From Cloacibacillus sp. (GTDB lineage Bacteria; Synergistota; Synergistia; Synergistales; Synergistaceae), in NCBI GenBank assembly GCA_036655895.1, contig JAVVPF010000015.1:1-24000 (forward strand): DNA of 24,000 bases, read 5' to 3'. The notes beneath the pieces are model-generated. The model saw nothing but the letters and a program-made list of their open reading frames with translations, searched no databases and had not been told where the DNA came from. Of the stretch, positions 3,255-16,481 are shown in pieces (position 1 is the first letter of the stretch; each line of letters starts with the position of its first letter). The position numbers and the translations under genes were made by a program.

Positions 3255-3710
3255 ATGGCAGATATCGACAGAAAACCTGAAAATAAAATATTCAAGAAAA
3301 GGCGCGGCTTCACTCTTATAGAAATAATGGTGGTGGTCGTTATTATCGGGCTGCTTTCCGCGCTTGTCGGGCCTAAGCTGATGGGCCAGAGCGACGAGGC
3401 GAAGCGCAAGACGACGCAGACGCAGATATCGCAGCTGGAACAGGTGCTTGGGCTTTACTATCTTGACAACGGCTTCTACCCGACGACGCAGCAGGGCCTT
3501 GAGGCGCTGGTCTCCGCACCCGCAACGCCGCCGGAACCGCTCAACTACAAAAAGGGCGGCTATATGAAAAAAATGGCGAAGGACGCTTGGGGACGCGAGT
3601 TCATCTATGCTGCGCCCGGCGAGCACGGCGATTTTGACATCCTCTCCTACGGCGCGGACGGCCAGGAGGGCGGCGAAGGCGCCGCAGCCGACATCATGAA
3701 TTGGGAATAG
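3255..3710 (+). CDS. gspG: type II secretion major pseudopilin GspG-like protein
   Basis: Prepilin motif KRRG|FTLIEIMVVVVIIGLL, then GspG-typical DEAKRKTTQTQISQLEQ...LDNG.YPT.QGL.AL and DAWGREFIY..PGEHGDFDILSYGADGQEGGEG. RBS GGAGGTG lies 5 nt upstream of the ATG. Confidence 0.85.
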   Translation: MADIDRKPENKIFKKRRGFTLIEIMVVVVIIGLLSALVGPKLMGQSDEAKRKTTQTQISQLEQVLGLYYLDNGFYPTTQQGLEALVSAPATPPEPLNYKKGGYMKKMAKDAWGREFIYAAPGEHGDFDILSYGADGQEGGEGAAADIMNWE

Positions 3711-3736: not shown

Positions 3737-4276
3737 ATGATAATAAAAGCCATCCGCCATGATCTGCTGCTTGAGACGAGCAAGGGGGTGGACGCGGGCG
3801 GCCACGTCTTCGGCGCGGTGGTGCTCGATAAAGCGACGCTTTGTCCGGTCATCGCCGGAAGCAACAACCGAATGGAAAATCCTATATACCACGGCGAGGT
3901 GGAGACGCTGCGGCGTTTCTTCGCCTGCCCGAACCACCCGAAGCCCAAAGACTGCATCTTCGTAGCAAGCCACGACCCGTGCCCGATGTGCATTTCAGCC
4001 ATCGCGTGGGCCGGCTTTGACGAAGTGTGGGTGCTCTTTAACTACGAGGACGTAAAAAAGAGCTTCGGTATGCCCGTAGACCTTCTGATGTATAAAGAAA
4101 TATTTGGCGCGGAGGGCGCGCGGCCGCAGAACGCCTTCTTTAAAAAATACGACTTAAAGGCGGAGGCGGCAAAAGAAGAAAACGCAGAACAGCTTGCCGC
4201 GGCAATATCTGAAATAGAGGCTCTATACGCACAGATAGGCAAACAGGTGCGTGACTTCGACTATCCGGGAATGTAG
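3737..4276 (+). CDS. cytidine/deoxycytidylate (CDA) family zinc deaminase
   Basis: Zinc-binding motifs HGE (YHGEVETL) and PCPMC. The start is uncertain: ATG 3737, or TTG 3722 preceded by AGGGG. The C-terminal roughly 60 aa is Ala/Glu-rich and helical-looking. Confidence 0.7.
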   Translation: MIIKAIRHDLLLETSKGVDAGGHVFGAVVLDKATLCPVIAGSNNRMENPIYHGEVETLRRFFACPNHPKPKDCIFVASHDPCPMCISAIAWAGFDEVWVLFNYEDVKKSFGMPVDLLMYKEIFGAEGARPQNAFFKKYDLKAEAAKEENAEQLAAAISEIEALYAQIGKQVRDFDYPGM

Positions 4277-4303
4277 GGCGCAGAAAGCGCCGGCGTTTGT
4301 ATA

Positions 4304-4344
4304 CGCAAAGGGACGGACATGGTGCAGCTGTCCGTCCCTTTGCG
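4304..4344. terminator. bidirectional intrinsic terminator hairpin
   Basis: A perfect 16-bp stem CGCAAAGGGACGGACA (4304-4319) / TGTCCGTCCCTTTGCG (4329-4344) with a 9-nt loop. It sits between the convergent deaminase gene and the small-protein gene. Confidence 0.6.
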
Positions 4345-4363
4345 CTCTGGGGTTTTTAGGGTA

Positions 4364-4642
4364 CTAGCTCTGGATGGCTTTTTGGATGATCTCCGTTATT
4401 ATCTCTTCGCCTCGGGGAGTCATATTTTGGATGTCCGCCAAATCATTGTTGGTAAACGATGCAAAATCGAAATTCGCCCTTTTCAGGATGGCGGCCCCAA
4501 TATAATGCACCGCGTCCTTGTTCTTCTTGTATATACGTTCCTCCAGCTTCTTCATCTTGGAGTCGAGCTCCTTGATCAGCAGCTCTGGGCTTCTCCTTAT
4601 TCTCTTGGCGGACGGCCCTTTGGGCTCTCTGCTACCGGTCAT
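4364..4642 (-). CDS. small basic hypothetical protein (92 aa), predicted coiled-coil N-terminal half
   Basis: ATG at 4642 is preceded by AAAGGGGA 9 nt upstream. The ATG at 4669 has no RBS. The sequence is Lys/Arg-rich (PSAKRIRRSPELLIKELDSKMKKLEERIYKKNKD). GC was about 47% in one 60-nt sample, against 60-67% in neighbouring genes. No family recognised. Confidence 0.5.
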   Translation of the reverse strand: MTGSREPKGPSAKRIRRSPELLIKELDSKMKKLEERIYKKNKDAVHYIGAAILKRANFDFASFTNNDLADIQNMTPRGEEIITEIIQKAIQS

Positions 4643-4832
4643 AAATATTTCATCCCCTTTATCGTACATAATTTATATTAATTAAATCATTAGTTTGCTG
4701 TGCCTTACATTGAAAAGTATAATTCTCTTTTATGTTTGGCACATTGCGTTTTATACCTAAATGGCTATGCGTAAGCATAATGATTAAAGGTTTTTGTTTA
4801 AAATATAACATTATCCGCGCAAGCGGCCGTCC

Positions 4833-9223: not shown

Positions 9224-10270
9224 TTAGGAGCCGGCGGCGAAGCTGCAGGCGGGGTAATGGCAGACGGGGCAGTGCTCGCACAGGCCGCCTACGCCCCATC
9301 TGCGCACGAGGTCGCCCGGCTCTATGCCGGCGAATACGAATGGCAGCAGCTTGTCGAGCGCTGTTCTTTCGTCAAAGGCGACGCAGGCTGGCGCGCCAAT
9401 GACGGCCACGTCGCGCCCGTCTTCCGGCGATTTCGCCCAGCCCAGCATCAGCATAGCGCCGGGAAGCGCGGGCGTTCCCTGAAACGATATTTTCGCGCAC
9501 CGCGAGCGGATGGCGCCAGGCGTTCTGTCGTCCGCGTCGACGCTCATGCCGCCGGTGCATATAACGGCGTCCGCGCCCTCGTCAAGAAACGCTCCTATGG
9601 CGCCGCTTATCTGCTCCAGTGAATCGGTACAGAAGCGCTGGCCCAAAAGCGTGCCGCCGAGCCGTCCAAGTTTTTCCAGAAGTTTCGGGCGGAAGGCGTC
9701 CTCAACGCGGTTGTCCACTATCTCCTTGCCAGTAGTCACAAGTCCCACCTTCAGCGGCTTGAAGGGCAGTATCATAAACGGTTTACTGCCGCGCACCGAG
9801 GCCACGGCGCGTTCGACGCGGTAGTCTCCAAGCACCAGCGGACGGATGCGAAAGCCAGCCACCGTCTGTCCGGCCAGCACCGGCCTGTGAGGGGCGAGCG
9901 CCGAAAGCACCCAGTCAGGGTCCTGATTGACGCGGTTCACCGTCTCAGCCAGATACCAAAGCAGCCCAGACTTCTCCGCTACGAGGTTGCACCGTCCCTC
10001 CTCCGGCTCCGTAAGGCGCAGGTTTTCGCCGCAGAGCGCCTCTCCGAGCGCGCGCGCCGCGTCGTCCTCGTGAATGTCGCCGGGAGACATCTCCATTATC
10101 GAAAGGTTCTCGCGCCCCATGCTGCGAAGCGTCTCAAGGTCGGCCTCTGTGATCACCTGTCCCTTTTTGAAGCGCGCCGATTTTTTGTGGTTTTTCGCGT
10201 CGATCTGCGTAAGGTCGTGCGCAAGCGGCAGTCCTACCGCCGCGTCAAGCGGGATCTGCGTTATCTTCAA
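9224..10270 (-). CDS. molybdopterin-binding (MoCF_biosynth/MoeA-MogA-like domain) protein with Cys-rich C-terminus
   Basis: MoCF-type domain: VGLVTTGKEIV...DSLEQI..AI..FLDEGADAVICTGGMSVDADDRTPGAI. The C-terminal tail is CEHCPVCHYPAC. The TTG start overlaps the upstream stop as TTGA. Confidence 0.65.
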   Translation of the reverse strand: MKITQIPLDAAVGLPLAHDLTQIDAKNHKKSARFKKGQVITEADLETLRSMGRENLSIMEMSPGDIHEDDAARALGEALCGENLRLTEPEEGRCNLVAEKSGLLWYLAETVNRVNQDPDWVLSALAPHRPVLAGQTVAGFRIRPLVLGDYRVERAVASVRGSKPFMILPFKPLKVGLVTTGKEIVDNRVEDAFRPKLLEKLGRLGGTLLGQRFCTDSLEQISGAIGAFLDEGADAVICTGGMSVDADDRTPGAIRSRCAKISFQGTPALPGAMLMLGWAKSPEDGRDVAVIGAPACVAFDERTALDKLLPFVFAGIEPGDLVRRWGVGGLCEHCPVCHYPACSFAAGS

Positions 10271-10704
10271 TTGTTATCATCCTTTTCATCGTTGTTTTTA
10301 TCGGAATTGCTCACAGCGCACTCAGGGCACGCGCCGTAGATGACGAACTGTTTGCCCTCGACCTGCATCCCGGCGGGCACCGCAACGCGCGGCATCCGCT
10401 GGTCGGCAAGGCAGAACATCCTGCCGCACGAAAGACATAAAAAATGCGCGTGATCGCCGGGGCAGCCCTGCGTTCCCTGCTCGTGCGCGCAAAAACGCCA
10501 GACGCCGTCGATGCCCTGCACCTGATGGACGATGCCCGCCCTCTTCAAAGTTTCAAGCGTCCGGTATAGAGTGACGCGGTCGAGATGCTCCGCAAGCCGC
10601 GCCTGTATCTCCGCGTGAGAAAGCGGCGCGCCCTCCGCTGCAAGCAGCTCCAGCACCACGCGCCTCTGCCGCGTCACCCGCAGCCCCGCGCTTGTCAGTT
10701 CCAT
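10267..10704 (-). CDS. Fur family transcriptional regulator
   Basis: Fur-type winged helix (RVTRQRRVVLELL...LSHAEI...VTLYRTLETLKRAGIV) plus HAHFLCLSCG...CPEC metal sites. ATG at 10704 is preferred over TTG at 10716, and the RBS is weak for both. The stop overlaps the next gene's start (TTGA). Confidence 0.8.
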   Translation of the reverse strand: MELTSAGLRVTRQRRVVLELLAAEGAPLSHAEIQARLAEHLDRVTLYRTLETLKRAGIVHQVQGIDGVWRFCAHEQGTQGCPGDHAHFLCLSCGRMFCLADQRMPRVAVPAGMQVEGKQFVIYGACPECAVSNSDKNNDEKDDNN

Positions 10705-10960
10705 ATTTATATCCAAAAGGTCCAGGCCCCCAGTCCGTTTTTATTTTCCCAATATTTATATTATCCTCAAATCACAACTTAATTGCAATAGGTTGCCCGC
10801 GCGCGAAAATAACACACCAAAGCGCCGCGCGTTTAAAATTATTTGATATATAAGGCAAAATTTGTTTTGAGGCCTTACTACATCGTGCAAAAGAAAAATC
10901 AACGTCGCAAACGTAAGCGTAAATTAATTTTTACAGCTCTGTTGCGTTCCAAAGCAGAGG

Positions 10961-10989
10961 TTGACATTATCGGCCTCTGCTTTTATTAT
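10961..10989 (+). promoter_or_regulatory. sigma70-type promoter of the ilv leader
   Basis: TTGACA (10961-10966), 17-nt spacer, TATTAT (10984-10989). It is embedded in a 10-bp-stem hairpin (10951-10960 / 10974-10983). Confidence 0.55.
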
Positions 10990-11052
10990 GTTCCCCAATA
11001 TGCGAGAAAGGCGCGCAGCCTTTCAAACCGGCATCGAAGGGACGGGACAGCA

Positions 11053-11142
11053 ATGCGGAAAGATATGATGGTAAACGTATCCAATATAGTCGTCGTAGTA
11101 CGCATTATTAGCAGCGGGTCCCCCGAATTGGCCGGCGCTTAA
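11053..11142 (+). CDS. ilv leader peptide (29 aa; MRKDMMVNVSNIVVVVRIISSGSPELAGA)
   Basis: A short ORF between the promoter and an intrinsic terminator. It has 6 Val and 3 Ile within 13 residues, including GTC GTC GTA GTA (11089-11100) and ATT ATT (11104-11109). Alternative starts are at 11065 and 11068. Confidence 0.6.
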   Translation: MRKDMMVNVSNIVVVVRIISSGSPELAGA

Positions 11143-11157
11143 TTGCCGTGTTACTTC

Positions 11158-11193
11158 GGACCGGGGCCCACAGAGGGCGCCGGTCCTTTTTTT
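11158..11193 (+). terminator. attenuator terminator upstream of ilvN
   Basis: GGACCGGGGCCC-acaga-GGGCGCCGGTCC, followed by T7 (11187-11193). This gives 11 of 12 bp paired, 38 nt before the ilvN start. Confidence 0.7.
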
Positions 11194-11230
11194 ATGATTT
11201 TTAAGTTTGCTTAGAAAGGGCGTTATCAAT

Positions 11231-11719
11231 TTGAAGAGTACATTCAGCATCGTTTCCGAAGACAACCCCGGAGTGCTGATGCGCATCGCAAGCCTCATCT
11301 ACCGGCGCGGCTATAACATCGAGAGCCTTAGCGTCGGGCGCACGGACACGCCGGGACTTTCGCGCTTCACCATCATCATAGAGGGCGAGGAGGGCGTCTA
11401 CGACCAGATCCGCAAGCAGCTCATGAAGCTCATAGAGGTCGTAGAGGTGAACAACCTCACGAAAGAGGGGCCGTTCGTCGAGCGCTGGCTTTCGCTAGTC
11501 AAGGTAATGGCGCCTCTTGAACGCAGGCCGCACATCTTGCAGACGGCGGAGATCTTCCGCTGCCGCGTCGTAGACCTCGGCTCCGATACGATAACGCTTG
11601 AGGTGACGGGCGACTACGGAAAGGTGCAGGCCTGCATGGAGGCGCTTCGCCCCTACGGCATACTTGAGACGGCTGGCAGCGGACAGGTTGCGCTCTCCCG
11701 CACCGGCTTCGACAACTAA
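11231..11719 (+). CDS. ilvN: acetolactate synthase small (regulatory) subunit
   Basis: ACT-domain start typical of IlvN/IlvH (STFSIVSEDNPGVLMRIASLIYRRGYNIESLSVG.T). TTG at 11231 follows GAAAGGG. An alternative TTG at 11207 has no RBS. Confidence 0.85.
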   Translation: MKSTFSIVSEDNPGVLMRIASLIYRRGYNIESLSVGRTDTPGLSRFTIIIEGEEGVYDQIRKQLMKLIEVVEVNNLTKEGPFVERWLSLVKVMAPLERRPHILQTAEIFRCRVVDLGSDTITLEVTGDYGKVQACMEALRPYGILETAGSGQVALSRTGFDN

Positions 11720-11782
11720 GTTATCATTTAGCCCAGTAAGCTTTTGATATATAAATTCTAATATTTTAAGGAGTGTTTTATT

Positions 11783-12796
11783 ATGGGTGCAAAGGTTTAT
11801 TACGATCGCGACGCGGACTTGAATTTTCTTAACGGCAAAAAGGTGGCCGTCATCGGCTACGGAAGCCAGGGACATGCGCATTCGCAGAATCTGCGCGACA
11901 GCGGCGCGGACGTCATCGTAGCTCTTCACGAAGGCAGCAAGTCAAAGGCGAAGGCGGAAGCGGACGGCTTTTGCGTGCTGACGGTGGCTGAGGCCGCAAA
12001 AGAGGCCGACCTCATCATGTTCCTCATGCCCGACCACATGCAGGCTGAGATATACAAGACGCAGGTCGCGCCGAATATGAAGCCCGACGCCAAGCTGCTC
12101 TTCGCGCACGGCTTCGCGGTACATTTCGGCCAGATAACGCCCGCTCCGTCGCACGACGTCTTCATGATAGCCCCCAAAGGCCCCGGACACATGGTGCGCG
12201 CCATGTACAAAGAGGGCAAAGGCGTGCCGTGCCTCATCGCCATCTACCAGGACGCAAGCGGCAAGGCGAAGGACTACGCGCTTGCATACGCCTCGGCAGT
12301 AGGCGGCGGACGCGCGGGCATCATTGAGACCACCTTCCGTGAGGAGACGGAGACCGACCTCTTCGGCGAGCAGGCCGTGCTTTGCGGCGGCGTCTGCGAA
12401 CTGATGCAGCAGGGCTTCAAGACCCTCGTCGACGCCGGCTACCAGCCCGAGATGGCCTACTTTGAGTGCATCAACGAGATGAAGCTTATCGTAGACATGA
12501 TCTTCGAAGGCGGCATGAGCTGGATGAGATACTCAATCAGCGACACGGCGAAATACGGCGACATGACGGCAGGCCCGCGCGTAATTGGCGAAGAGTCGCG
12601 CAAAGCCATGAAGCAGCTCCTCACAGAGATACAGGACGGCACCTTCGCGCGCGACTGGATCCTTGAGAACCAGACCGGACGCCCGCGCATGAAGAAATGG
12701 GCGAAGGCGGCCCAGGAAGCTCCCTGCGAAGCCGTAGGCAAAGAGCTGCGCAAGATGATGCCTTGGATGGATCAGAAGGAAATCCCTAAATTTTAA
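11783..12796 (+). CDS. ilvC: ketol-acid reductoisomerase (class I)
   Basis: [39 protein letters not shown] and a full-length 337-aa KARI-like sequence. RBS AAGGAG. Confidence 0.95.
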
Positions 12797-12917
12797 GATT
12801 GTATGGCCCATCTCCGTCATGACTTGGCCTCAGCCTTTCCTCGCCGCACGAAAGAGTGCGGCTCCGGGAGGCTGAAACCAAGTCATTTAGGAGCTGAACC
12901 ATCCAATCTTAAAATTT
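12788..12917. repeat. about 130-nt imperfect inverted repeat / extended hairpin overlapping the ilvC stop codon
   Basis: Outer arms 12788-12806 / 12899-12917 pair at 18 of 19 positions. Inner helices are 12812-12815/12890-12893, 12819-12827/12878-12886, 12830-12836/12869-12875 and 12843-12849/12856-12862, with apical loop GAAAGA. Confidence 0.5.
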
Positions 12918-13120
12918 CAACTTTTGACGCACCGCAAGTGCGCCTCCGGCTCATCGCCGGCCGATTCATTTAGCATCCGGCACATCTAAACAGCGGGCCA
13001 TACGTATCGTATGAAAATATGAAAAGATAAGAAGATAAAAGATAACAAGACAAAACACAACATGATAACACGGTAAGCAGGCACTGGCTAAAAAACAAGA
13101 TTTTAAAGGAGCGCAATAAA

Positions 13121-14803
13121 ATGGCAAGAATGAACGGGGCTCAGATGGTGGTCAAAGCTCTGGAGGACGAGGGCGTATCGACGGTCTTCGGGCTTCCCGG
13201 GGGGACGGTCATCCATCTCTATGACGCTCTCTATGATTCCAAATTAAATCACATACTGATGCGCCACGAACAGGCGGCCTCGCACGCGGCGGACGGATAC
13301 GCGCGCACAAGCGGCAGGCCGGGCGTCTGCATCGCGACATCGGGCCCCGGAGCCACGAACCTCGTAACAGGCATAGCGACAGCGAACCTCGACTCAGTGC
13401 CGATGATAGCCATCACGGGGCAGGTGGCGACCACAGTCATCGGAACGGACGCCTTTCAGGAGGCGGACATCGTAGGCGCCTCGCTTCCGCTGGTAAAACA
13501 CAGCTTCCAGGTGCGCACGCCCGACCAGATACAGTCAACCATCCACAAAGCCTTCTACATAGCCTCGACGGGACGCCCCGGGCCGGTGCTCATAGACGTC
13601 CCCGCGGACGTACAGAAGGGCTTTGGCGACTATAAATATTCAACGGAGCTAGATTTTTTAGGCTATCATCCAGAAAACCTCTGGGACGTCTCGCAGCTTG
13701 ACGCCGCGGTCTCCCTCATAGAGCATGCGGAGCGCCCCGTGATATTTGCCGGCGGCGGCGTCATTCGCTCAGGCGCCTCGCCCCAGCTCATAGACTTCGC
13801 GCTGAAATACCAGATACCGGTGACGACCACGCTCATCGGCAAAGGCGGATTCCCCGAGTCGCACGAATCGGGCCTCGCGCTCGGCATGGCCGGAATGCAC
13901 GGACGCCCCGTAGCGAACCGCGCGCTCATGGCGGCAGACGTCATAATCGCCGTCGGCTCGCGTTTCAGCGACCGCACCACAGGCAACAGACAGCGGTTTG
14001 CCGCGGACGCAAAAATAATCCACATAGACCTCGACGCGGCTGAGATAGACAAAGCCATAGAGACGGACGTCTGGCTCGTAGGCGACGCCGCGCGCGTGCT
14101 CGACGCCTTGATGGCCGCGCTTGGCAAAAAAATAGCGGAGCACGGCGAATGGAACAAAACCCTTGACGAAATACGCAAAAAAGAGCCGCTGCCGCACGGC
14201 CGTCTTGAAAACGAAATAGCCCCGTGGCAGGCGCTCGAAGAGCTTCGCGCACTCACGGGAGGGTCGGCCGTCATCACAACCGAAGTCGGCCAAAACCAGA
14301 TGTGGGCGGCGCAGTATCTTAACATCGAAGCGCCCGGGCGCTTTTTGAGCTCAGGAGGCCTGGGTACAATGGGCTTCGGATTCCCCGCTGCAATAGGCGC
14401 GGCCTACGCCTGCCCAGACCAGCCCGTATGGTGCGTCGCCGGCGACGGCAGCCTCATGATGAACATACAGGAGCTAGACACCTGCGCACGCTACAACATC
14501 CCCGTCAAAATCATGCTGCTCAACAACGCCTGCCTCGGCAACGTGCGCCAGTGGCAGCAGCTGTTCTACGATCACCGTTATTCAAACACCATCTACAACA
14601 GAACGCCTGACTTCGTAAAAGTCTCCGAGGCGATGGGCGTTCCCGCCTTCTCCGTCTCGCACCCGAACGATCTCCACAAAACGCTTGCGGCCGCAATGGC
14701 CGAGCCGGGCCCAGCCTTGGTGGACGTCCGCATACCGCAGGGCGCGCTAGTGCTTCCGATGGTCTACCCCGGCGACTCGATAGACAACATGGTGACTCAA
14801 TAG
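13121..14803 (+). CDS. ilvB: acetolactate synthase large (catalytic) subunit, biosynthetic type
   Basis: ThDP-enzyme N-terminus (GAQMVVKALEDEGV..VFG.PGG....YDAL), the SGPGATNLVTG motif, and a C-terminal ThDP motif GDGS.MMNIQEL. RBS AAAGGAG. Confidence 0.95.
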   Translation: MARMNGAQMVVKALEDEGVSTVFGLPGGTVIHLYDALYDSKLNHILMRHEQAASHAADGYARTSGRPGVCIATSGPGATNLVTGIATANLDSVPMIAITGQVATTVIGTDAFQEADIVGASLPLVKHSFQVRTPDQIQSTIHKAFYIASTGRPGPVLIDVPADVQKGFGDYKYSTELDFLGYHPENLWDVSQLDAAVSLIEHAERPVIFAGGGVIRSGASPQLIDFALKYQIPVTTTLIGKGGFPESHESGLALGMAGMHGRPVANRALMAADVIIAVGSRFSDRTTGNRQRFAADAKIIHIDLDAAEIDKAIETDVWLVGDAARVLDALMAALGKKIAEHGEWNKTLDEIRKKEPLPHGRLENEIAPWQALEELRALTGGSAVITTEVGQNQMWAAQYLNIEAPGRFLSSGGLGTMGFGFPAAIGAAYACPDQPVWCVAGDGSLMMNIQELDTCARYNIPVKIMLLNNACLGNVRQWQQLFYDHRYSNTIYNRTPDFVKVSEAMGVPAFSVSHPNDLHKTLAAAMAEPGPALVDVRIPQGALVLPMVYPGDSIDNMVTQ

Positions 14804-14816
14804 GAGCTGATAGATA

Positions 14817-16481
14817 ATGAACAGCGATAAAGCTAAAAAAGGATACCTTCGCGCGCCGCACCGCTCGCTTCTCAAAGCGGCCGGCTACACCGACTGGGAA
14901 ATAGAACGCCCGTGGATAGGCGTAGCCAACGCCTACAACGCAATAATCCCAGGGCACACCCACCTGCGCACCATCACAGAGGCGGTCAAGGCCGGAATCT
15001 ACGCGGCGGGCGGCCTTCCGATAGAATTTCCGGTAATAGGGGTGTGCGACGGCATAGCCATGAACCACGAGGGAATGAAATTCTCCCTGCCCAGCCGTGA
15101 GCTCATCATGGACTCAGTAGAGGTGATGGCGCGCGCCCACGCCTTCGACGGGCTCGTGCTCGTGCCCAACTGCGACAAAATAGTGCCCGGCATGGCAATG
15201 GCCGCGGCGGAGCTGAACCTCCCGTCAGTAGTAGTCTCAGGCGGCCCCATGATGGCCGGGCAGCACAAAGGAAAAACACTCGACCTAAACAGCGTCTTTG
15301 AAGGCGTCGGCCAGCGCGGAGCCGGAAAAATAGACGACGCGGCCTTACAGGAGATAGAAGACAACGCCTGCCCCGGCTGCGGCTCCTGCTCAGGCATGTT
15401 CACGGCAAACACCATGAACTGCATGATGGAGGCGCTGGGCCTCGCCCTCCCCGGAAACGGCACCATTCCCGCCGTGCACGCCGGACGCATCCGCCTCGCA
15501 AAAGACGCAGGGCGCGCCGTAATGGCGCTCGTTGAAAAAAATATACGCCCGCGCGACATACTGACCGCGGAGGCCTTCAGAAACGCCGTAGCGGTAGACC
15601 TTGCTCTCGGCGGCTCCACAAACACCTCGCTCCACCTTCCCGCCATCGCGTGGGCGGCTGGGCTAAAACTATCTCTTGAACTCTTCAACGAAGTCGGCGA
15701 ACAGGTGCCGCACCTCTGCTCAATGAGCCCCGGCGGACAGTATCACATAGAGGACCTCTGGCGCGCAGGAGGAGTGCGCGCTCTCATGGAAGAACTCTTT
15801 GCCGCCAGCCTCATAAACGGCGAAGTCATCACAGTCACCGGAAAAACGGCCGCTGAAAACGCCGCGGGCGCCCGCGTGCTTGACACTGAGGTCATTCGCC
15901 CGCTCGACAGGCCCTACCACAAACAGGGCGGCCTTGCCTTCATGAAAGGAACGCTCGCCCCTCTTGGCGCAATAGTGAAACAGGCGGCGGTAGCCCCTGA
16001 AATGCTCGTCCACACCGGCCCGGCGCGCGTCTTTGAATCCGAAGAAGAGGCGAGCGCCGCAATAATGGCAAACAAAATAAAAGACGGCGACGTAGTCGTC
16101 ATTCGCTGCGAAGGCCCCAAAGGCGGCCCCGGAATGCGCGAAATGCTCGCCCCCACCTCCGCCATAATGGGTCAGGGCAAAGGAGAAACGGTAGCCCTCA
16201 TCACAGACGGGCGCTTCTCCGGCGCAACGCGCGGCGCCGCCATCGGCCACGTCTCGCCCGAAGCCGCGGTAGGCGGCCCCATCGGCCTTGTAGAAGAGGG
16301 AGACGAAATATACATCAACATCCCTGAAAAACGCCTCGACCTCCACGTCTCAGAAGAGACGCTCGCCGAACGCCGCAAAAAATTCGTCCCCAAAGAACAG
16401 CCCGTAGAGAGCCCCTTCCTAAACCGCTACCGCGCCTTCGCCACCAGCGGAGTAGAAGGCGGAGTGCTGAAAAAAGGCTAG
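14817..16481 (+). CDS. ilvD: dihydroxy-acid dehydratase
   Basis: The IlvD/Edd family is recognisable throughout ([53 protein letters not shown]). Confidence 0.95.

Follow-up and report, generated by a model that had tools for sequence, protein, structure and literature searches.

How the genes for valine (Val) and isoleucine (Ile) biosynthesis are controlled is the question raised by a stretch of 24,000 nt from Cloacibacillus sp. (Synergistaceae, Synergistota; contig JAVVPF010000015.1, positions 1–24,000, forward strand), referred to here as the window. Ahead of ilvN, the first gene of an ilvN-ilvC-ilvB-ilvD operon, the window holds a short open reading frame (ORF) rich in Val and Ile codons, followed by an intrinsic terminator and overlapped by one strand of a competing antiterminator. 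The original prediction, made from the sequence of the window, took this arrangement for a leader-peptide attenuator in a genome that did not look proteobacterial, and the relatives recovered by a scan with IlvN, all but one from Synergistota, bear out the latter guess. The element is very probably a ribosome-mediated leader-peptide transcription attenuator of this operon, and it most likely turns the Val/Ile biosynthesis genes on when these amino acids run short. This reading was built on computed evidence, namely the layout of the element, its retention among related loci, the covariation of its helices, the energetics of its competing folds and a codon content that tracks the cargo of the operon.

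The leader ORF occupies 11053–11142 on the plus strand, from an ATG at 11053 to a TAA at 11140–11142, and its 29 codons encode MRKDMMVNVSNIVVVVRIISSGSPELAGA. The reading frame and the codon positions originally given for it were confirmed, and every related locus retains the ORF. Its regulatory codon run, ATA GTC GTC GTA GTA CGC ATT ATT (I V V V V R I I; 11086–11109, plus strand), includes four Val codons at 11089–11100 and two Ile codons at 11104–11109, and its composition tracks operon content. Both final Ile codons are ATT, the rarest Ile codon in the genes of the window (8%). Across the six frames of the 24-kb window there are only three ten-residue stretches with at least seven Val or Ile residues, where shuffling gives a mean of 0.13. 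One of the two stretches outside the leader is the ordinary prepilin-type N-terminus (GFTLIEIMVVVVIIGLL) of an ORF at 3255–3710, which holds the sole other VVVV run in the window.

Signs that the ORF is read as codons are found throughout the related loci, which carry L numbers here. Every complete related leader examined has a start codon (ATG, GTG or TTG) with a G-rich Shine-Dalgarno-like sequence upstream, located at 11038–11050 for the leader ORF of the window. Alignment gaps within the ORF are multiples of three, even inside the antiterminator strand termed segment 2, where in-frame insertions of GGT (L024 and L027) and CCT (L025) occur; after the stop codon, gap lengths include 1, 2, 5 and 7. 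In addition, the run of Val, Ile or leucine (Leu) codons is retained in all members while the individual codons vary.

The RNA part of the element consists of two mutually exclusive helices. Segment 2, GGGTCCCCCGAA (11116–11127, plus strand), is the 5′ strand of the antiterminator and falls within the leader ORF, with 6 nt between it and the last Ile codon; its assignment rests on pairing, covariation and folding. Segment 3 (11155–11169, plus strand), assigned by pairing and folding, is common to both structures, serving as the 3′ strand of the antiterminator and, from 11158, as the 5′ arm of the terminator. The intrinsic terminator (11158–11193, plus strand; −26.3 kcal/mol) was present as predicted, with GGACCGGGGCCC at 11158–11169 pairing with GGGCGCCGGTCC at 11175–11186 across the loop ACAGA, ahead of a T7 tract at 11187–11193. 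Its 12-position stem comprises 11 Watson-Crick pairs and one G-G mismatch. The predicted pairing of segment 2 with TTCGG and GGGGCCC (11155–11159 and 11163–11169; 12 bp, a 3-nt bulge and one G-U) proved exact, but the antiterminator is longer than had been proposed and encloses a conserved apical hairpin (11129–11153, plus strand), which is supported by folding and by three pairs with compensatory changes. The loop of this hairpin contains the leader stop codon, so by the time a ribosome finishes the peptide it has opened the antiterminator's 5′ strand in full.

Both helices are preserved across relatives, the antiterminator through covariation and the terminator through maintained pairing. 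In an alignment of 26 sequences, the terminator was 96.2% paired, and the antiterminator with its apical hairpin was 95.4% paired with compensatory changes at six pairs, a level reached by none of 500 shuffles. When divergent members were added, giving a set of 23 more diverse sequences, changes on both sides were observed at 12 of 20 antiterminator pairs (again 0/500 shuffles), and 93.3% of positions were paired, against 26–52% when the partner columns were slid. Individual cases illustrate how the strands move together. In L008, segments 2, 3 and 4 have changed jointly to GGGCUCU, GGAGCCC and GGGCGUCC, in L021 CCGAA:UUCGG has become UCGAA:UUCGA, and in L058 the CCGAA:UUCGG sub-helix is replaced by CCUGGG:CCCAGG.

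The element is confined to a single genomic position. Each of the 62 related loci that contain the region has a single copy, which in every case lies upstream of ilvN. A protein scan with IlvN at one genome per species returned 27 loci from Synergistaceae (Cloacibacillus, Synergistes and 'Caccocola' metagenome-assembled genomes, MAGs) at 68–92% identity, and one unrelated Nitrospirota locus with ilvB directly upstream and no leader. A homologous short ORF was found in every Synergistaceae locus with enough upstream sequence, and the terminator and antiterminator in all loci whose downstream region was aligned and folded; conservation of a short ORF with its helices upstream of ilvN orthologues, which the original prediction implied, was seen wherever a locus covered the region. 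Public metagenomes, scanned for the pattern of the segment 2 to segment 3 core, yielded 29 loci, 28 of which carry the same element in the same context (genes of the MoCF and Fur families divergent, then leader-ilvN-ilvC and onward), the remaining one being a chance match. More distant IlvN homologues in the protein database (65–68% identity) led to the leaders L058/L059, L060 and L061, which keep the architecture with a different primary sequence. A covariance model built from the 23 diverse members gave 59 matches in 493 kb of collected locus sequence, one per locus and all upstream of ilvN, with the window scoring 110 bits at 11077–11194; one copy was also found in each of three further loci. 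No second copy upstream of ilvB, leuA or other genes was detected in the 493 kb by literal motif search or by the covariance model.

This distribution bears on a reading in which the ORF encodes a functional small hydrophobic peptide, for instance a toxin or a membrane micropeptide, and has its own terminator, while ilvN is promoted separately. The peptide does have a hydrophobic core, and its C-terminal ISSGSPE is conserved among closer relatives, in fact nucleotide-invariant among close ones. In distant members this motif is replaced (GHGFPPGIAGA, SRRSHPGSIGA or TAGLLG, in leaders reading IIGHGFPPGIAGA, VLSRRSHPGSIGA and IITAGLLG) while the RNA helices persist, and it therefore reflects constraints on RNA rather than on peptide. 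On the same grounds, ISSGSPE was ruled out as a functional or arrest peptide. Furthermore, the gap between the T tract and the ilvN start is just 37 nt and contains no promoter-like site, and the element was never found away from ilvN. A free-standing peptide gene is accordingly the least credible explanation considered here, and an extremely improbable one.

Conservation also extends just 5′ of segment 2, where the linker UUAUUAGCAG (window 11104–11115) is nucleotide-invariant among closer relatives, third codon positions included. Additional antiterminator pairs explain just its last two bases. The linker differs in distant members, where a spacing of about 6 nt (two codons) from the last Val, Ile or Leu codon to segment 2 is kept.

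The most interesting aspect of the element is the graded co-variation of its sensing codons with operon content; to gauge it, Leu was counted over the final ten codons of the run. Type A operons (ilvN-ilvC-ilvB(-ilvD), with ilvD in the window) have no Leu codon in 10 of 11 distinct leaders, including that of the independent lineage L060. Counts rise to 1–2 in type C (ilvN-ilvC-leuA-ilvB-ilvD) and to 2–5 in type B (ilvN-ilvC-leuA-leuC-leuD-leuB-ilvB-ilvD), the latter being scored on leuA-leuC, with the full leuABCD set where the whole operon was in view. The corresponding runs read IVVVVRII or VVVVII without leu genes, LVLVVVVII with leuA only and typically LVLVLVLLI with leuABCD. A Mann-Whitney comparison of type A with types B and C gave p = 2e-6, which is not a true probability given that the sequences are phylogenetically related. 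Two loci with an IlvN closer to that of the window, L062 and L063 (84–85% identity), have type B operons with Leu-rich leaders. In the codon sequences compared, replacements between Leu and Val or Ile are mostly single first-position changes (CTN, GTN, ATN). Such a pattern is predicted by a leader peptide that senses amino acids, and not by a switch operated by a metabolite or a protein.

The same comparison has a possible metabolic corollary. A search among 5.8 billion proteins for a separately regulated leuA found no LeuA 75–99% identical to that of L024, and the two closest matches looked up (72–74% identity) belong to ilvN operons headed by Leu-rich leaders. On this evidence, sister genomes with no leuA in the operon, for example L027 and possibly the organism of the window, may have no leuA altogether and may be leucine auxotrophs.

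The codon pattern also weighs on the proposal that the terminator and antiterminator form a switch run by a metabolite (a riboswitch, for example for guanosine tetraphosphate, ppGpp), by uncharged transfer RNA (tRNA) through a T-box or by an RNA-binding protein, the ORF being incidental. The best-conserved nucleotides are indeed RNA-structural, with segments 2–4 and TTATTAGCAG invariant even at third codon positions, and ppGpp riboswitches and T-boxes control ilv genes in other phyla (PMC10272879). Rfam 15, with its curated leader/attenuator, T-box and ppGpp families, returned nothing at the gathering score in the whole window; at E ≤ 10, the leaders of the window and of L013 gave just weak matches to unrelated hairpin-plus-terminator small-RNA models, and none to the T-box or ykkC/ppGpp families. 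No conserved structured domain resembling a ligand-binding site was seen except a clade-variable 5′ stem-loop, and the region upstream of segment 2 is variable coding sequence. In addition, the ORF, its start codon, its Shine-Dalgarno sequence and its reading frame are all conserved, with in-frame insertions and deletions only, and a ligand-sensing RNA does not predict Val, Ile and Leu codons that change with the genes downstream. A switch operating independently of the ribosome is thus judged very unlikely.

A leader-peptide attenuator must be able to form either helix depending on the position of the ribosome, and the constrained folds behave in this manner. The whole antiterminator including the apical hairpin has −31.8 kcal/mol, compared with −26.3 kcal/mol for the terminator. 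When the transcript was cut after segment 3, as in a nascent RNA, all 12 antiterminator pairs formed. Masking with a ribosome footprint of 28 nt, a size assumed from general knowledge, gave 11 of 12 terminator pairs when the mask was placed at the stop codon or over segment 2. With the mask on the Val codons, segment 2 stays outside the footprint, and the full-length equilibrium fold contains just 5 of 12 antiterminator pairs. The originally expected termination with segment 2 covered was thereby reproduced, and the antiterminator formed in a transcript cut after segment 3. All 23 representatives are alike in these respects, with terminators of −17 to −35 kcal/mol, antiterminators of −29 to −42 kcal/mol and an antiterminator that sequesters about two-thirds or more (68–90%) of the bases in the 5′ arm of the terminator.

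Together, these features point to the following sequence of events, in which translation of the leader, stalling on the regulatory codons and the response to amino-acid supply are the steps proposed. Transcription would begin about 7 nt after the −10 box, and a ribosome would load at the leader Shine-Dalgarno sequence and translate the 29-codon ORF close behind RNA polymerase. With Val-tRNA and Ile-tRNA well charged, the ribosome would pass segment 2 and reach the stop codon in the apical loop; segment 2 being covered, segment 3 would pair with segment 4, and transcription would end at the T7 tract. Under poor charging, the ribosome would stall on the I-VVVV-R-II codons and leave segment 2 exposed. 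The exposed strand would then pair with segment 3 as the latter emerges, forming an antiterminator hairpin of about 21 bp, and the terminator would be blocked, allowing the polymerase to read into ilvN. The mechanism corresponds to the one originally proposed, and is supported by conservation of the ORF, start codon and Shine-Dalgarno sequence, by covariation, by constrained folding and by codons that follow operon content.

Several observations weigh against this account. At equilibrium and with no ribosome, the region 11110–11195 prefers the terminator together with the apical hairpin (−40.7 kcal/mol). Since equilibrium favours the terminator, antitermination must be kinetic and co-transcriptional, as in classical systems. 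The minimum free energy (MFE) fold of the full-length leader also contains long-range pairing of the Shine-Dalgarno region with segments 2 and 4. Moreover, the codon-cargo correlation is carried by a few clades rather than by many independent events. A clear 1:2 'protector' hairpin could not be made out in the clade of the window, and an untranslated leader there might consequently default to read-through. Finally, by standard footprint sizes, stalling on the last Ile codon would place the first 3–4 nt of segment 2 under the ribosome.

The candidate for a protecting segment deserves separate consideration. In classical attenuators, segment 1 pairs with segment 2 when the leader is untranslated. 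When the nascent leader is folded, segment 2 has only one recurrent partner, namely the Shine-Dalgarno region of the leader ORF, CGAAGGGACGGGAC (11036–11050, plus strand), which is thus the candidate segment 1; a G-rich sequence of this type is present in all members. The duplex between the two has −11 to −18.6 kcal/mol, and in L058 and L061 the Shine-Dalgarno region changes in parallel with segment 3, amounting to three-way covariation. In the main Leu/Val clade, five members were tested and the duplex had z < −2 in three of them (L011, L015 and L018); in the window's own clade it was no better than expected for shuffled G-rich sequence. The long-range MFE pairing with segments 2 and 4 was considered as a structure in its own right and set aside as an equilibrium artefact, the Shine-Dalgarno region of L008 showing no clear compensating change and co-transcriptional folding favouring local helices. 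It can be proposed tentatively, as a joint idea that is somewhat doubtful, that the specificity of a single homologous attenuator has been adjusted along with gene gains and losses in the operon and that the leader Shine-Dalgarno region serves as segment 1, an anti-antiterminator. Under such an arrangement, failed initiation on the leader would force termination and hide the Shine-Dalgarno sequence.

Upstream of the leader lies a sigma-70-type promoter (10961–10989, plus strand) with TTGACA at 10961–10966, a 17-nt spacer and TATTAT at 10984–10989. It matches 11 of 12 consensus positions at the coordinates originally assigned to it and is the best promoter-like site within 10200–13200. Transcription would start at about 10996, some 7 nt beyond the −10 box. 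TTGACA-N17-TATTAT was found at the equivalent position in the related loci whose upstream sequences were read, and the TTGACA hexamer in 22 of 26 loci.

An inverted repeat, AAAGCAGAGG-N13-CCTCTGCTTT (10951–10983), surrounds the −35 hexamer and is flagged as terminator-like by a scan. It is not visible in the promoter and upstream sequences of relatives, and may be a window-specific operator or a product of chance.

The possibility that control is exerted mainly at this promoter, by a CodY-like repressor or another DNA-binding protein, with the hairpin acting as a constitutive partial terminator or insulator, draws on several facts. In a bioinformatic study, ilvN, ilvC, ilvB and ilvD are among the putative CodY-box-associated genes of Synergistetes (PMC9318921), CodY and an attenuator act jointly on these genes in S. 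aureus (PMC5794164), and the inverted repeat around the −35 hexamer could be read as an operator. Neither the CodY box AATTTTCWGAAAATT (with up to three mismatches) nor AAAATT-N13-17-AATTTT occurs anywhere in the window, however, and the repeat is missing from the promoters of relatives. A constitutive terminator would also leave the covarying antiterminator and the conserved codon run unexplained. Promoter control as the principal mechanism is therefore regarded as very unlikely; it could nevertheless operate together with attenuation, as an addition and not an alternative.

Two further structures are found in the 5′ part of the transcript. A 5′-proximal stem-loop with the inner stem GAAAGGC/GCCTTTC (11000–11034, plus strand) appears in the MFE fold, and RNAalifold keeps the stem in the Val/Ile clade; covarying versions were seen in the 26-sequence alignment, and its form differs between clades. 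Separately, the Arg codon CGC within VVVV-R-II creates CGCAUU, which complements AAUGCG at the start of the leader (11052–11057 with 11101–11106). This pairing also appears in the MFE fold and is clade-specific (window, L001, L002 and L008).

Downstream, the operon is longer than the ilvN-ilvC pair named in the original prediction, which is present and is followed by ilvB and ilvD according to Pfam. The first regulated gene, ilvN (11231–11719, plus strand; ALS_ss_C and ACT_AHAS_ss), encodes the acetolactate synthase small subunit and starts at TTG 11231 with a Shine-Dalgarno sequence, GAAAGGG, 8 nt upstream; a protein identical to its 162-amino-acid product is present in the protein database. 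It is followed on the same strand by ilvC, encoding ketol-acid reductoisomerase (11783–12796; KARI_N and KARI_C), ilvB, encoding the acetolactate synthase large subunit (13121–14803; TPP_enzyme N, M and C domains), and ilvD, encoding dihydroxy-acid dehydratase (14817–16481; ILVD_EDD_N and ILV_EDD_C). The gene order is conserved, and ilvB probably belongs to the same operon as ilvN-ilvC despite the 324-nt spacer that precedes it.

Several features of these loci were observed alongside the attenuator. Between ilvN and the catalytic-subunit gene ilvB lies ilvC, joined in many relatives by leuABCD, and the ilvN-before-ilvB order is retained in every Synergistaceae locus long enough to show it; L060 has two ilvN paralogues in tandem. 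The ilvC-ilvB spacer of the window is unusually long relative to the roughly 96–195 nt of close relatives. Directly after the ilvC stop codon, an imperfect palindrome of 130 nt (12788–12917) has 62-nt arms that are 77% complementary, and it could be an insertion resembling a miniature inverted-repeat transposable element or a repetitive extragenic palindrome, a hairpin for processing or stabilizing messenger RNA, or a scar of leuABCD loss. Within the spacer only this palindrome, and no leader, was found. Genes for a Fur-family regulator and a molybdopterin-binding (MoCF_biosynth) protein lie on the minus strand at 9224–10716, divergent from the ilvN leader. The divergent pair occurs in 20 of 27 species-representative loci, with a shared intergenic region of about 340 bp.

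Gene calling across the leader is a practical point, as public MAG annotations mis-call genes over it. The gene calls of public assembly L063 include a 53-amino-acid 'gene' spanning the leader (L063 4022–4183). Mechanical ORF listing starts ilvN too early both there, at GTG 4189 (4189–4785, 198 amino acids, across the terminator T tract), and in the window, at TTG 11207 (170 amino acids), upstream of the likely start. Many IlvN homologues in the database are 165–209 amino acids long, not 162.

The literature located contains no description of attenuation or of a leader peptide in Synergistetes/Synergistota. The one regulatory study of the phylum describes a CodY-like regulon with ilvN, ilvC, ilvB and ilvD as putative targets and mentions no leader (PMC9318921). 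The argument for novelty in the original prediction was overstated in treating ilv leader attenuation as largely proteobacterial. Attenuation of ilv genes by leader peptides or upstream ORFs (uORFs) has been described or predicted in Corynebacterium (PMC10272879; PMC11857589), in other Actinobacteria (PMC1262725), in M. tuberculosis (PMC13236596) and in S. aureus (PMC5794164). Furthermore, the Leptospira ilvB motif and the multi-phylum ilvB-OMG motif have been reinterpreted as uORF attenuators (PMC10272879).

For the Synergistaceae, which are amino-acid fermenters of the gut, rumen and digesters, the element provides a first, computational, regulatory model of Val, Ile and Leu biosynthesis, where only a loosely defined CodY regulon had been proposed before. 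It also constitutes a well-defined RNA family missing from Rfam, one that counts about 60 sequences, is described by a covariance model and is supported by covariation. The grading of codons with cargo makes an unusually clean comparative case that selection for sensing acts on the codon composition of the leader, and the natural leader variants could be used to test how many codons of each kind set the specificity of an attenuator.

The leaders of E. coli ilvGMEDA (ilvL) and ilvBN (ivbL), cited in PMC10272879, are textbook leader-peptide attenuators. The Synergistaceae element shares with them a promoter-proximal ORF, some 30 codons long, in which Val, Ile and Leu codons form a dense run, an intrinsic terminator before the first gene, and an antiterminator that uses the 5′ arm of the terminator. 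As in E. coli, more than one of Val, Ile and Leu would be sensed, matching their shared pathway. Unlike the E. coli systems, to which it has no sequence or covariance-model similarity, the element is found in the phylum Synergistota and precedes the small-subunit gene ilvN, with ilvB two to six genes downstream. The antiterminator's apical loop holds the stop codon of its leader, and its candidate segment 1 is the leader Shine-Dalgarno region instead of the regulatory codons.

Another close system is the Corynebacterium ilvBNC leader (the ilvB-II motif or three-hairpin attenuator), in which a uORF with an abundance of Val, Ile and Leu codons likewise overlaps alternative hairpins before a terminator (PMC10272879; PMC11857589). 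Both lie outside Proteobacteria and were identified by the same kind of comparative evidence. Their sequences are unrelated, the Corynebacterium gene order is ilvB-ilvN-ilvC, and the Corynebacterium leader has reporter and mutational support, the Synergistaceae element computational support. The Leu-rich attenuator peptide of the S. aureus ilv-leu operon (PMC5794164) resembles the LVLVLVLL-type Synergistaceae leaders in that its Leu codons match an operon containing leu genes; it differs as a Firmicute element working with CodY, for which the Synergistaceae window has no box. The ilvB-OMG and Leptospira ilvB motifs are likewise lineage-restricted conserved RNAs with Val/Ile/Leu-rich uORFs before acetolactate synthase genes, but they stand upstream of ilvB, in contrast to the present element, which stands upstream of ilvN and has no Rfam match even below threshold. 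Altogether, the element is a well-supported example of a familiar kind of regulator; its probable mechanism is the textbook one, and what is new is a lineage-specific sequence family in the understudied phylum Synergistota.

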